This document shows, in pieces, positions 1,873 through 44,417 of a stretch of DNA of 64,000 bases. The position numbers and the translations under genes were made by a program. Each line of letters opens with the position of its first letter. Position 1 is the stretch's first letter. Below the pieces are notes generated by a model, which did no database searches, was not told the origin of the DNA, and saw only the letters and a program-made list of their open reading frames with translations. Source of the stretch: Clostridia bacterium (lineage in GTDB: Bacteria > Bacillota > Clostridia > TANB77 > CAG-508); contig JAZNWN010000001.1 in assembly GCA_045593405.1 (NCBI GenBank), forward strand, positions 22,926-86,925, read 5' to 3'.

Positions 1873-1977
1873 TGTAGGGGCGATTTTAATCACCCGAAAA
1901 AATATAAAAATACATAAACATGTAGGGGCGGACTTCCACGTCCGCCCGAGGGCAGGGGTGGAACCCTGCCCCTACAA
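1873..1977. repeat. REP/BIME-like palindromic element: short unit (GTAGGGGCGATTTTAATCACCC), AT-rich spacer, then a long two-hairpin unit
   Basis: Outer stem GTAGGGG/CCCCTAC encloses hairpins GGCGGAC-TTCCAC-GTCCGCC and GGGCAGGG-GTGGAA-CCCTGCCC. The 57-nt long unit is identical to the copy at 14405-14462. Confidence 0.9.
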
Positions 1978-1990
1978 GGAGGAAACATAA

Positions 1991-2947
1991 ATGAAAATTC
2001 CACAATTATTAGAAACAGCAATAGAAAATGAAATAAAGAACATAAAAATTACAGAATTAAAAAAACATGCTCAAGATCTAAGTAATAAATATATGAAAGA
2101 AGAAAGAACAGGAAAATCTTTACTATCAGAAGAAATAGAAGCTTTAGCATATTCTATAATGAGAATGCCAGCAACATTTGGGGCAATAACAACTGCATTA
2201 AAAAATTCATTAAAATTAATGCCTAATATAGAAATAAATTCTATACTTGATATTGGAGCAGGAACAGGTGCAGCAATTTGGGCAATAAATGAGTTTATAT
2301 CTCCAAGTAAAACAACATGTATTGAAAGAGAACAAGCAATGAGAACAGTTGGAGGAAAACTTCTAAAATATAATAATGAGATAAAAAATGTAGAATGGAT
2401 AGATGCAGATATAACAAACTGTGAGTTTCCTAAAAAAACAGATTTAATTATAGTATCATATATGATTAATGAATTAAATCCAGCAGAAAGAGAAAAATTA
2501 ATACATAAATTATTAAAAATAGAAAGTAAGTTAATATTAATTATAGAACCAGGTACACCAGAAGGTTTTAAAAACATAAAAAACATACAAAAACAGGTAA
2601 TAGAAGAGGGTGCATATATATTAGCACCATGCACAGCCCAAACAGTATGTCCTTTACCTGAAGATGACTGGTGCAACACAACTGTAAGAATAGAAAGAAC
2701 AAAAACACATAAGATTTTAAAAGATGGAGATGTGCCGTATGAAGATGAAAAATATTCATATATAGCAATAACAAAAGAAAAACATCAAACAGAAACATCA
2801 AGAATATTACGACATCCAATAATAGAAAAAGGAAAAATAACATTAAAATTATGTACAAATGGAAAGGTAGAACAAAAAACTATAACAAAAAAAGATGGAG
2901 AAATATTTAAACAAACAAAAAAGAAAAAATGCGGAGATGAATTATAA
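1991..2947 (+). CDS. class I SAM-dependent methyltransferase, Rsm22-like with Cys-rich C-terminus
   Basis: DIGAGTGAA SAM-binding motif. C-terminal cysteine cluster (CTAQTVCPLPEDDWCNTTV). Good RBS GGAGGAAAC. Confidence 0.6.
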   Translation: MKIPQLLETAIENEIKNIKITELKKHAQDLSNKYMKEERTGKSLLSEEIEALAYSIMRMPATFGAITTALKNSLKLMPNIEINSILDIGAGTGAAIWAINEFISPSKTTCIEREQAMRTVGGKLLKYNNEIKNVEWIDADITNCEFPKKTDLIIVSYMINELNPAEREKLIHKLLKIESKLILIIEPGTPEGFKNIKNIQKQVIEEGAYILAPCTAQTVCPLPEDDWCNTTVRIERTKTHKILKDGDVPYEDEKYSYIAITKEKHQTETSRILRHPIIEKGKITLKLCTNGKVEQKTITKKDGEIFKQTKKKKCGDEL

Positions 2948-3046
2948 GGTAAACTAAATGGCAATATCATTAATTTGATATTGCTTTTTTTGCTAGAAAA
3001 TGGTATTATATTTAAGGAAAAATATACGAAATTAGGAAGGAAATAT

Positions 3047-3754
3047 ATGTTAAATTTAAAAAATATATGTTTTGAAAGAGATGGTAAAAAAATATTAGAC
3101 AATTTAAATTTAAATTTAGATGATAATAAATTTATAGTAATTACTGGACCAAATGGTTCTGGAAAATCAACTCTTGCAAAAATAATAATGGGAATAGAAA
3201 AACCTGATGATGGACAAGTTCTTTTTAATGGACAAGACATATCAGTTAAAAGTATAGATGAAAGAGCAAATTCAGGAATAAGCTTTGCATTCCAACAACC
3301 GGTAAAATTTAAAGGAATTACTGTATTTGATTTATTAAAATTATCTGCAGAAAAAGATATTTCAAGAAAAGAAGCTTGTGATATATTATCAAAAGTAGGT
3401 TTATGTGCAAAAGAATATGTGGATAGAGAAGTAAACGCTTCTTTATCTGGTGGGGAGTTAAAAAGAATAGAAATAGCAAGTGTAGCTGTAAGAGAAGCAA
3501 AACTTACAATATTTGATGAACCAGAAGCAGGAATTGACTTATGGAGCTTTAATAACTTAATAAAAGTTTTTGAAGAAATGAGAAATATAATAGGGGGAAC
3601 TATTTTAATAATCTCTCACCAAGAAAGAATTTTAAATATAGCAGATGAAATAATACTTTTAAATAATGGAAAAATAGAAAAACAAGGCAAAAAAGAAGAT
3701 ATTATAGATGTTATTTTAAAAACGGAGAAAAAAGGATGTTGCAAAATAAAATAA
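3047..3754 (+). CDS. sufC: SufC-like ABC ATPase (Fe-S cluster assembly)
   Basis: Walker A GPNGSGKST and signature LSGGELKRIEI. Start moved to ATG 3047, which follows a GGAAGG RBS. The ORF-track start at 2975 has no RBS. Confidence 0.75.
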   Translation: MLNLKNICFERDGKKILDNLNLNLDDNKFIVITGPNGSGKSTLAKIIMGIEKPDDGQVLFNGQDISVKSIDERANSGISFAFQQPVKFKGITVFDLLKLSAEKDISRKEACDILSKVGLCAKEYVDREVNASLSGGELKRIEIASVAVREAKLTIFDEPEAGIDLWSFNNLIKVFEEMRNIIGGTILIISHQERILNIADEIILLNNGKIEKQGKKEDIIDVILKTEKKGCCKIK

Positions 3755-3770
3755 TGTTGAATACAAAATT

Positions 3771-3823
3771 TGTAGGGACGAGCATTACTCGTCCGCGGGT
3801 AGGGGTGGAACCCTGCCCCTACA
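3771..3823. repeat. REP-like palindromic element (two-hairpin type, slightly degenerate)
   Basis: TGTAGGGACGAGCATTACTCGTCC...GGGGTGGAACCCTGCCCCTAC lies immediately after the sufC stop. Confidence 0.85.
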
Positions 3824-3859
3824 TACAAAGACTAACCCAATAAAAAGAAAGGAAATTTA

Positions 3860-41720: not shown

Positions 41721-41912
41721 ATGGAATATAAAATAGGAGATATTGTAGAATTTAAAAAACCACATCCATGTGGAAATAAACAATGGGAAATAACAAGAAT
41801 AGGTGTAGATTTTAAATTTAAATGCAAAGGTTGTGGCCATAATATTGTACTCGAAAGACAACAAGCCTTAAAAAGAATAATTAAAAAGGTGAATGCTAAT
41901 GAAAAAAAGTAA
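41721..41912 (+). CDS. DUF951 family protein
   Basis: 63 aa with KKPHPCGNKQW and CKGCGH motifs, as in small DUF951/YyzM-like proteins. Confidence 0.75.
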   Translation: MEYKIGDIVEFKKPHPCGNKQWEITRIGVDFKFKCKGCGHNIVLERQQALKRIIKKVNANEKK

Positions 41913-43216
41913 TATTCCTTCATGGATATTTATGATTATTATGTTATTTATAATATATTTTTTATTTGGTATTTATAAATCACATTATTTTAATGGATTT
42001 ATAAAAGCTGAATCAACAATTGGAATTTCTGAATTTAAAAGAGATGCAAATATTAAATATTTAGATTATGACACTTATAGAATAGTGTCACCTGAACAAA
42101 ATGATGCAGCCTTTTATAAAGAAATAGAGGTAGAACCTAATACTCCATATAGAGTAACTTGTATGATAAAAACAGAAAATGTTATACCATCTGCAATTAA
42201 TACTGATGGAGGTGCTTGTATTTCTATAATAGAGTCATCAGAAATTTCAAAGAGTATTACTGGTACAACTGATTGGCAGAAAGTAGAGTTGATGTTCAAT
42301 TCTAAAAATAGAACAAGTTTAAAAATAGGTTTTAGATTGGGAGGAAATTCAGGAACTGCTGAGGGTACTGCATGGTTTTCAGATTTTAAATTAGAAAAAG
42401 GTTTAAAAGTAAAAGATTCAAATTGGAAAGTTGCATGCTTTATTTTTGAAAATACAGATGTAGAAATTAATGGTAAAAGAGTGAATTTTTCGATGTCTTT
42501 ATCAGAAATTGAAACCGTAAAAAGTGATATGGCAAGGTTTGAATCTACATGTGAAACTATGAGTAATGAAAAACTACAGGTTGATTATGATGTTTACAAT
42601 ATAGAAGAACCGCTTAGAACTATTTCTTATTCAGAAGAGCATAAGTATTATTTTGACCCATACGATGTAAATAATATGATTGAGGATATTGTTTTAGAAA
42701 ATGACTATGATTATATATTTGCAGTAGTAAAGATGGGTGATAGTGAAAAAGAAATACCAGTAGCTAATTGGGTTGGACTTCGGAAGTATGGATTTGTATG
42801 GTATAGGGTTTTCAAATATTAGAATATCTAATGATGATAGTAACTATATTTATAAATATGACTATAGAATAAATGTTTTTCCAGAAGAGGTATTTATACA
42901 TGAGTTTTTACATACTTTAGAAAGAACGTCACAAGAATATGGATTTGATGTACCAAATTTACATAGTTATTCAAATTATGGATATGAAGAAGGAGGCATA
43001 AATGGTCTTAAAAATTGGTACCAAGCTTATTTGAGTTCTGAAATATTAGATAAATCAACACATGAATATATAGGAATAAATGAGAAAGTATTTATTTTAA
43101 AACCAACTCATAAAAATAATTTTAAATTTACAATAGAAATAGATTTTAGTAAAGAACCTAGTAATATAATAGAAGAAATAAAAAGCTTATTTAACGTGAT
43201 AGCAGATGTAATATAA
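41899..43216 (+). pseudogene. membrane-anchored HExxH zinc-metallopeptidase-like protein split by a +1 frameshift at a GGGTTTT run
   Basis: ORF 41893-42822 (N-terminal TM then beta-rich domain) and ORF 42773-43216 (HEFLHTLE motif) overlap by 50 nt in adjacent frames. Removing one T near 42807-42810 fuses them (..GFVWYRVSNIRISNDD..). Confidence 0.6.
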
Positions 43217-43218
43217 AT

Positions 43219-43279
43219 TGTAGGGGAGGACTTCCACGTCCACCCGTGGTACAGGGGGGGAGAACACTGCACCTACGAA
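43219..43279. repeat. REP-like two-hairpin element, degenerate, contains a G7 run
   Basis: TGTAGGGGAGGACTTCCACGTCCACC...ACCTACGAA. Confidence 0.75.
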
Positions 43280-43295
43280 TGGAAGGAAACAAAAA

Positions 43296-44336
43296 ATGAA
43301 AGTATCAGATTTCAATTACAATTTACCAAAAGAATTAATAGCACAACATCCATTAGAAAATAGAGATGAATCTAGATTAATGGTATTAAATAGAACCACA
43401 CAAACAATAGAACATAAAATTTTTAAGAATGTAATAGATTATTTGAATCCAGGTGATTGTTTAGTAATAAATAATACAAAAGTAATACCTGCTAGACTTT
43501 ATGGAGTGAAAATTAATTTAACTACTGAACATGAACCAGCTCATGTAGAGTTTTTACTTTTAAAACAACTAGAAAAGGATATTTGGGAGGTTATGGTAAG
43601 ACCAGGTAAAAAATTAAAAACAGGAGCAAAAGTTACTTTCGGAGATGGTCTGCTTGAAGCTGAAATATTGGAAATATTAGAAAATGGTAACAGAAAAGTA
43701 AAATTCTACTATGAGGGTATTTTTAATGAAATATTAGACCAAATTGGCTTAATGCCATTACCTCCATACATAACAGAAAAATTAAAGAATAAAGATAGGT
43801 ATCAAACAGTTTATGCAAAACATGATGGATCAGCGGCTGCTCCAACAGCTGGTTTACACTTTACACCAGATTTATTAGAGAAAATAAAAGAAAAGGGAAT
43901 CATTATTGCAAATGTAACTTTACATGTTGGAATTGGAACATTTAGACCTGTAAAAGTTGATAAAATTGAAGAACATGAGATGCATACTGAACATTTTTAT
44001 ATAAAACAAGAAGATGTTGATAAGATTAATACTGCAAAGAAAAATGGGCATAAAGTAATTGCAGTTGGAACAACATCTTGCAGAGTTTTAGAAACAGTAG
44101 CAGATGAAAATGGAATGCTTATCGAAACTGAAGGAGATACAAATATTTTTATCTATCCAGGATACAAATTTAAATGCATTGATAACTTAATAACTAATTT
44201 TCACTTGCCAGAATCAACACTTATCATGCTAGTATCAGCGCTTGCAGGAAAGGATTTTATAATGAATGCATATGAAACAGCAGTAGAAGAAAGGTATAGA
44301 TTCTTTAGCTTTGGCGATGCAATGCTTATTTGTTAA
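43296..44336 (+). CDS. queA: S-adenosylmethionine:tRNA ribosyltransferase-isomerase
   Basis: N-terminus [31 protein letters not shown], 346 aa. Confidence 0.95.
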
Positions 44337-44417
44337 TGTAGGGGGCGCAGTCTTCGGCACCCCGAAAAATAAATATTTAACTTATTTGCGGGTTGCCCAG
44401 GAGTGCGACCTCTACAA
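44337..44417. repeat. BIME-like composite (two GTAG-prefixed GC hairpin halves flanking an AT-rich spacer)
   Basis: Starts at the nucleotide after the queA stop. Confidence 0.85.

Follow-up and report, generated by a model that had tools for sequence, protein, structure and literature searches.

The 64,000-nucleotide stretch of a Clostridia bacterium genome analysed here (contig JAZNWN010000001.1, positions 22,926 to 86,925; the whole stretch is called the window below) raises the question of what the short GC-rich palindromes are that start with the tetranucleotide GTAG and recur between its genes. With a probability of roughly 0.8, we consider them to be non-autonomous mobile elements of the GTAG class of repetitive extragenic palindromes (REPs) and REP doublets forming hairpins (REPINs), moved by a putative REP-associated tyrosine transposase (RAYT) of the subclass 2.4 kind that would be encoded elsewhere in the genome.

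The elements are far in excess of chance. On both strands of the window, GTAGGGG is found 23 times, against 1.36 expected from dinucleotide-preserving shuffles (shuffle maximum 4), and the pattern GTAGGGG-N10-40-CCCCTAC five times against 0 expected. In total, about 25 units are present at 15 loci, every one of them intergenic, and an element was found at all 15 coordinates listed in a preliminary description of this DNA. Every GTAGGGG on the minus strand is the second half of some doublet. The base composition of the window is about 28% G+C with a GC skew that is positive all along, and the elements make up nearly all of its GC-rich islands; no element is present in positions 44418-64000. Related contigs carry 5 to 7 GTAGGGG per 17-21 kb. 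An Rfam scan of the whole window at gathering thresholds gave zero matches, at E <= 1 the region 27400-42000 gave chance microRNA-type matches only, on long hairpins, and a tRNA scan of the window found nothing. A clustered regularly interspaced short palindromic repeat (CRISPR) array was ruled out, as the spacing of the copies is irregular. Integron attC sites were set aside on general grounds, with no scan for GTTRRRY-type ends or an integrase gene.

Each unit measures 22-27 nt and consists of an unpaired (T)GTAG, a 7-9 bp stem beginning with GGG, a loop and a return strand ending in CCC, usually followed by G. The loops are of the types TTCCAC/T (TTCCAY), CTTG and TTTTAA, with CATTA found once. 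GTAG lies immediately 5' of the stem in every unit and is unpaired when single units are folded as single-stranded DNA (ssDNA). In the five units folded in this way, the stem is 7-8 bp long, the folding energies are -6.5 to -9.7 kcal/mol and the z-scores lie between -2.1 and -4.8. Five loci are singles (1873, 11268, 15773, 28540 and 41622). The other 10 of the 15 are doublets, in which two inverted units are placed tail to tail, so that both outer ends carry GTAG. Compact doublets have a 2-nt linker and span 54-59 nt, folding as two hairpins atop a short GTAG/CTAC stem. Split doublets have an AT-rich spacer of about 25 nt, span 77-81 nt and can form one long hairpin. For the five doublets folded as ssDNA, z-scores range from -4.4 to -7.4. 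The preliminary description assigned GTAGGGG and CCCCTAC ends and both orientations to the copies in general. The ends are indeed those of the ten doublets (as C(C)CCTAC, degenerate at 43219 and 44337), but the five singles consist of one hairpin without a CTAC end. Both orientations likewise apply to doublets as composite units, but all five singles have GTAG on the + strand.

Several copies are also close to each other in sequence. The 57-nt doublets at 1921 and 14405 are identical, as had been stated, and the same type recurs at 17080 and 38018 (reverse complement) and in the related contig L035. The doublets at 26183 and 37340 are reverse complements of each other, with 98% identity over 40 nt that extends into the spacer, and other copies are 91-98% alike. 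It is thus entire doublets together with their spacers that are repeated, in both orientations, as in a REPIN.

Six junctions, from MgtE to PTA, were compared in seven genomes: the window, L035, L144, L149, L150, L145/L146 and L151. Contig L035, a Clostridia metagenome bin, is syntenic with window positions 31464-37325 at 77-86% nucleotide identity. The further relatives were fetched via their Maf homologues, which are 87-89% identical in L144, L149 and L150, 80% in L145/L146 and 72% in L151. Between ProS and Maf, the window has a CTTG doublet, L035 a TTCCA doublet, L144 and L150 a third subtype, and L149 no REP. Between Maf and RdgB, L150 has a decayed version of the window's split CTTG doublet, L035 carries one TTCCAC unit and L144 a further subtype; L149 has no element there and the two genes overlap by 1 nt. 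Between PBP and ProS, a REP is present in L149 only. In the distant relatives L145 and L151, the gene order is unchanged and the junctions are short and empty, with 9-10 nt between Maf and RdgB and 19-25 nt between RdgB and the HD-domain gene. The elements are thus polymorphic in presence, with empty sites in L145, L151 and L149 and other subtypes or decayed copies elsewhere. Because close relatives differ in subtype, decay or absence while distant ones are empty, the elements are gained, lost and replaced within the time in which species diverge. That the junctions are empty in relatives of unchanged gene order also shows the hairpins to be dispensable. Comparison of the few filled sites with empty ones revealed no clear target duplication. 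In L144, the stop codon of Maf (10567-10570) is the TAG of the element's own GTAG, so that the element ends the open reading frame (ORF).

One genome per species was scanned with the pattern GTAGGGGC-N4-TTCCAY-N4-GCCC, matches being counted as stretches of genome contigs. This gave at least 118 stretches in dozens of species, and most of the matches listed are from Clostridia. These include Oscillospiraceae, Ruminococcus, Christensenella, Clostridium grantii DSM 8605 and numerous metagenome bins, other phyla account for a few matches, and the (local) G+C content of the hosts ranges from 27 to 70%. Gene junctions holding units across the family are co-directional in 35 cases, convergent in 16 and divergent in 6. 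A metagenome scan with the window's GCAGGG/TTCCAY unit returned 20 loci, none of them syntenic with the window, and one RAYT, on a contig of 56% G+C. A 28% G+C contig from a viral collection (L002:2233-2258) carries a TTCCAT-type unit together with other GTAG units and could represent either a prophage or a piece of bacterial DNA assigned to viruses by mistake.

Covariation was tested at the four stem positions that the search pattern leaves free, using 44 distinct sequences and 500 shuffles. At these positions, 94.6% of the cells are paired, compared to 82.3% in the shuffles. Double changes, affecting both sides of the stem, account for 52 cells versus 12.1 in the shuffles, a number reached in 0 of 500. 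As a control, the 3' partners were slid by 1-3 columns, which lowered pairing to 40-56%. Since the free stem positions covary, the hairpin is selected while loop and foot are kept constant, as would be expected if a protein recognised it. Stem differences between copies had been described as compensatory and as a sign of selection on structure. Selection on the hairpin is confirmed by these counts, but the differences between copies represent distinct subtypes swapped at loci and not the slow evolution of a conserved site.

Related ORFs of the Y1_Tnp type, 157-170 aa long, lie beside or around the unit at 7 of the 118 stretches listed, with one more from the metagenome scan. The loci at which such an ORF adjoins or contains a TTCCAY unit are L009, L011, L045, L056, L067, L100, L123 and L130. 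A regular expression (HUH...Y-NP) over the ORFs of all loci gave two true RAYTs and four false matches, the remainder being found by BLAST from the true ones. The proteins match Pfam Y1_Tnp and score 61-67 bits on the NCBIfam model 'REP-associated tyrosine transposase' but only 17-27 bits with the IS200 model. Among solved structures, E. coli TnpAREP (4ER8) matches them best (E = 0.0014). A profile built from six of them retrieves at least 7857 proteins at E <= 1e-10. Source annotations of homologues read 'transposase [Clostridia bacterium]' and, for some from the Joint Genome Institute (JGI), 'REP element-mobilizing transposase RayT'. The motifs NHIH, WQ and YIDTN[PV] are present, with the class 2 signature Y-xxx-N and not Y-xxx-Q, and these motifs fit TnpAREP subclass 2.4. 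In L045 and L011, the classical arrangement of REPs flanking the RAYT gene is observed. At family level, the suggested link to RAYT-type HUH-Y1 transposases therefore holds, with RAYT-like ORFs beside the unit in other genomes.

REP units are also found in frame inside the RAYT gene itself, in L067 (5640-5830), L100 (440-640), L123 (3280-3500, minus strand) and L147 (10121-10313). One REP of the pair encodes the peptide VGEGLCALP or a variant, and the inverted, TTCCAY-type REP encodes GG[HR]GNPPLQ. Together, the inverted REPs bracket the segment of the gene with the HUH motif, and both peptides are present in at least 101 of the best 120 homologues. The hairpin potential inside the gene is preserved by paired changes, some synonymous and some altering the peptide (VGEGLCALP versus VGGGFHAAP). 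In C. grantii, doublets with AT-rich spacers of 110-150 nt are repeated (L058:972-1135, L110:1201-1400 and L037:1171-1320), and their left and right REP types are those of the pair within the L123 RAYT gene. At L091:246-590, an L123-type REP pair brackets an apparent decayed RAYT core. The conserved in-gene pair and its recurrence in the C. grantii doublets and L091 are the most promising leads from this analysis. A speculative and rather improbable idea is that the core of the RAYT gene is the master copy giving rise to REPINs, or a site at which the enzyme acts on the gene encoding it; the occupied junctions of the window, with their replacement of subtypes, would then reflect a service to the host and not mere tolerance. 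Via the AT-rich homologues P0112 and P0103, a lineage of 41% G+C was reached with a single RAYT gene between pflB-like and pflA-like genes (L147:10001-10489 and L148:10001-10489). Its position is the same in both of two independent samples, in keeping with vertical inheritance and domestication of the gene.

The mobile-element explanation can be put as follows. A RAYT/TnpAREP-type HUH-Y1 enzyme would recognise the GTAG foot and the hairpin when the DNA is single-stranded. By cutting and rejoining at the hairpin, it would spread copies to new intergenic sites and let them replace one another. Purifying selection would spare only copies in the few bases that separate a stop codon from the following ribosome-binding site, which has to stay intact in tight junctions, or copies at operon ends. 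As a side effect, each cistron of an AT-rich mRNA would have a highly stable hairpin at its end, with a probable influence on the stability of the 3' end and, at two loci, on termination. E. coli TnpAREP is reported to cleave and rejoin REPs (PMC6006769). For the window's own genome, a RAYT as the mover and all effects at the RNA level are inferred. Several points weigh against this explanation. Neither the 64-kb window nor about 100 kb (non-redundant) of related contigs fetched contains a RAYT gene, so that the RAYT-like transposase flanked by units that was to be looked for was not found there. The association of REPs with RAYTs is partly one by construction, because the search pattern itself occurs inside RAYT genes. 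The NCBIfam scores lie below the model's curated cutoff of 80 bits, and the placing in subclass 2.4 is based on motifs and not on a phylogenetic tree. Some occupied junctions are common to several lineages, where selection for the hairpin is possible and not only tolerance of insertion. In the literature consulted on REPs, no report of a direct in vivo observation of REP transposition was found.

In the window, the elements are flanked by housekeeping genes on the + strand (SufC-like, SufB/D-like, ABC transporters, YebC, ProS, Maf and RdgB). At 12 of the 15 loci, the gap after the stop codon of the preceding + strand ORF is 0-27 nt, and at six it is 0-2 nt, with at least 13 nt left before the next start. 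The earlier placing of nearly all copies 0-30 nt past a + strand stop is correct for these 12, but not for 14405 and 28540. Most of the 13 loci without a T-run lie inside apparent operons with the next gene 13-58 nt on. The ORF list places two starts in or upstream of REP doublets (ORFs 14370..15761 and 17117..18388), the likely true starts being 14520 and 17165. Within the split CTTG doublets, sigma-70-like matches are present on the + strand at 37354-37383 (TTGACT-18-TATAAT, 11/12) and 26197-26224 (TTGACC-16-TATTAT), with the REP loop supplying the -35 hexamer and the spacer the -10 hexamer. Overall, promoter-like sites are no commoner than in shuffles. Table 1 lists the loci.

Table 1. GTAG-footed elements of the 64-kb window (positions in the window; strand given for single units).
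Position	Strand	Element	Remarks
1873..1900	+	Single, TTTTAA loop, degenerate stem GGGCGAT/ATCACCC	1 nt past stop of ORF 789-1871; family D7
1921..1977		Compact 57-nt doublet: GCGGAC/TTCCAC unit, GA linker, inverted GCAGGG/TTCCAC unit	Ends 13 nt before next gene start
3771..3824		Compact doublet: GTAGGGACGAG/CATTA unit and inverted GCAGGG/TTCCAC unit (one stem mismatch)	Between SufC-like and SufB/D-like genes
11268..11294	+	Single, CTTG loop, one stem mismatch, then T-run	Resembles intrinsic terminator
14405..14461		Compact 57-nt doublet, copy of 1921-1977	About 350 nt from nearest long ORF
15773..15796	+	Hairpin beginning GTAGGGG, loop TGGT, then TTTTTT	Terminator-like; family membership uncertain
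17080..17136		Compact doublet, GCAAGG/TTCCAC and GCGGAG/TTCCAT	Orientation opposite to 1921; 0 nt past stop of ORF 16186-17079
26183..26259		Split 77-nt doublet, REPIN-like: GTCGGT/CTTG unit, 25-nt AT-rich spacer, inverted GCTGGT/CTTG unit	Between convergent genes
28540..28565	+	Single, TTTTAA loop, GGGCGAT/ATCGCCC	Upstream of PPDK-like gene; about 350 nt from nearest long ORF; family D7
36693..36746		Compact doublet, two CTTG-loop units	Between ProS and Maf
37340..37416		Split 77-nt doublet, reverse complement of 26183 element	Between Maf and RdgB; 2 nt past Maf stop
38018..38075		Compact doublet, reverse complement of 1921 type (94% over 52 nt)	0 nt past RdgB stop
41622..41645	+	Single, TTTTAA loop	Family D7
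43219..43277		Doublet, second half degenerate (end CACCTAC)	2 nt past preceding stop
44337..44417		Split doublet, both halves diverged (end CCTCTAC)	0 nt past preceding stop

The position of the elements at cistron ends brings up what they might do as RNA. Intact doublets are predicted to fold as RNA at -31 to -43 kcal/mol, in a transcript of 28% G+C. A role as mRNA stabilisers that would protect 3' ends, and termination at two loci, are plausible from the RNA effects reported for E. coli REPs (cited in PMC6006769). A terminator role, as suggested earlier, fits only 2 of the 15 loci: a T-run follows the hairpin at 11268 and 15773, and a terminator scan of the + strand calls these two alone. 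It is hardly credible that the elements are just rho-independent terminators which share a GC-rich stem by chance. Thirteen of the 15 have no T-run, the evident terminators of this genome are long AT-rich stems followed by T-runs (e.g., 39852-39892, 31334-31365 and 16070-16101), and a GTAG foot, conserved loops, inverted pairing and spread over several phyla are not properties of terminators. The hairpin at 15773 by itself could be an ordinary terminator that begins with GTAGGGG by chance. A reading with more in its favour, possible yet on balance doubtful, is that the hairpins are kept mainly for the host, as RNA marks of cistron ends that would block 3' exonucleases, set the stabilities of operon segments or slow ribosomes at stop codons, with mobility being only the means of delivery. 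The tight spacing past stop codons and before next starts, the RNA stability of the doublets and the sense-strand GTAG of all five singles are in line with this, as is the occupation of the ProS-Maf, Maf-RdgB and RdgB-HD junctions in several relatives, though by differing subtypes. A host need, however, agrees poorly with the empty Maf-RdgB junction of L149, with L145 and L151, in which every junction is empty and the hairpin is thus dispensable, and with the decayed copies in L150 and at 43219 and 44337 in the window. A position just after the stop is also expected from purifying selection on a tight junction.

Two other origins concern the mobility itself. The lineage may have lost its RAYT, leaving orphan REPs as relics that only decay or move by recombination. 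This would account for the lack of a RAYT gene in the window and the related contigs fetched and for the degenerate copies at 1873, 43219 and 44337 and between Maf and RdgB in L150, and loss of the tnpAREP gene has been suspected in REP-encoding genomes without tnpAREP (Quentin 2018, PMC6006769). We nevertheless judge it improbable. The 57-nt copies are identical and others are 91-98% alike, and the subtype at one junction differs between species whose Maf proteins are 86-89% identical; near-identical copies together with subtype differences between close species suggest recent activity. Moreover, the sequence available covers just a small fraction of the genome. Alternatively, the elements could be miniature derivatives of IS200/IS605, of the palindrome-associated (PATE) or miniature inverted-repeat (MITE) transposable element type, and unconnected with RAYTs. 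The common enzyme superfamily, the logic of the hairpin and the lack of a clear target duplication would suit such an origin, which we regard as very unlikely all the same: a 5' GTAG foot and a stem starting with GGG are REP features, the proteins adjoining the unit score far better on the RAYT than on the IS200 model and have Y-xxx-N in place of Y-xxx-Q, and neither an IS200 nor a TnpB gene turned up in the window.

Other repeats are present in the same region. A long palindromic element of about 180 nt (CCGCCAAATCTC...GGGGCATATATAT / ATATATATGCCCC) is situated at 38655-38830, between the HD-domain gene and PTA. L149 has an orthologous copy, L145 and L151 lack the element, and solo end fragments are found at window positions 41666-41682 (minus strand) and in L150. 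AT-rich palindromes based on TTTGGTATTTGG / CCAAATACCAAA occupy intergenic spacers at about 4838-4940, 31359-31465, 35096-35186 and 47336-47464; the copy between PBP and ProS is absent from that spacer in 6 of the 6 relatives compared. In L144, another palindromic repeat (GAGGTGAGAWGTGKGA... and its inverse) is present at 11280-11400, between RdgB and the HD-domain gene, and at 11975-12075, between the HD-domain gene and PTA. Past PTA, synteny of L144 with the window gives way to the block 13500-18450, which holds TnpV, AlbA_2/Schlafen-like, HTH and Mob_Pre genes and probably represents a mobilisable element that has integrated there. In the window, the GC-rich region 27590-27720, upstream of ORF 27746-28186, is strongly structured; the L144 counterpart of this ORF belongs to the RNase H family. 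As RNA, the spacer 27489-27746 is predicted to fold at -86 kcal/mol and has no Rfam match at E <= 1.

Studies of REP/REPIN-RAYT systems have dealt mainly with Proteobacteria, and surveys extend to Cyanobacteria and a small number of further phyla. The survey of GTAG families by Di Nocera (2013, PMC3733652) covers Proteobacteria, Cyanobacteria, Chloroflexi and the PVC superphylum and includes no Firmicutes or Clostridia, which are not mentioned by Nunvar et al. (2010) either. Bertels et al. (2017, PMC5581495) list Clostridia only under RAYT group 1. This group corresponds to subclass 2.1 of Quentin, in which no REP-like sequences had been identified. Full-text literature searches gave no description of REP/RAYT systems in Firmicutes or Clostridia. 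The statement that such elements are undescribed in low-GC Clostridia thus stands as far as the literature searched is concerned, but the proteins already carry the annotation 'transposase' in databases, and JGI homologues even that of RayT. The kind of element is already known; the host group is what is new. Low-G+C uncultured Clostridia appear to harbour dense, fast-changing populations of GTAG REPs, with one conserved unit type and a RAYT family found across hosts of 27-70% G+C. They would offer a second large clade for testing ideas on REPINs, such as vertical persistence, RAYT dependence and effects on the host. In the genomes and bins of this group, the elements also account for intergenic GC-rich islands, for spurious start calls (window positions 14370 and 17117) and for stop codons that form part of an element (L144).

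Among known systems, TnpAREP subclass 2.4, which corresponds to RAYT group 4 of Bertels et al. (2017, PMC5581495), is the one referred to in our reading. Its REPs are long or 'double foot' elements with three initial G-C pairs in their stems, and uniquely they lie in frame within the transposase gene (Quentin 2018, PMC6006769). Its motifs are NH[IFV]H, WQ and YIxNNP (Table 1 of PMC6006769), and it occurs in abundance among Cyanobacteria and Bacteroidetes and is 'scattered' through other phyla (PMC6006769). The elements described here share the 5' GT[AG]G foot, the start of the stem with three G-C pairs, the GTAG/CTAC ends, the in-frame REPs and the motifs, the protein features being taken from other genomes than the window's. 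They differ in that their hosts are mostly Clostridia (among the matches listed), with G+C contents down to 27-30% and at least 7857 homologues of the transposase. With the E. coli REPs and bacterial interspersed mosaic elements (BIMEs) and their TnpAREP (RayT, PDB 4ER8), they have in common the GTAG-footed hairpins, the inverted pairs, the position after genes within operons and an HUH-Y1 enzyme. However, the sequences are others, the stems are long and bulged in E. coli and short and perfect here, and E. coli TnpAREP belongs to subclass 2.2 and is only a weak match to the RAYT-like ORFs. The GTAG families of Di Nocera (2013, PMC3733652) resemble them in their GTAG tag, their G-C-rich stems with compensatory changes, the presence of several families per genome and the preference for co-directional and convergent junctions. 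As in the REPINs of Pseudomonas fluorescens (Bertels & Rainey 2011, PMC3116915), doublet and spacer are repeated together in both orientations, and the split doublet can form one long hairpin. In contrast to these REPINs, the halves of the compact doublets have unlike stems and therefore fold as two hairpins on a short common stem.

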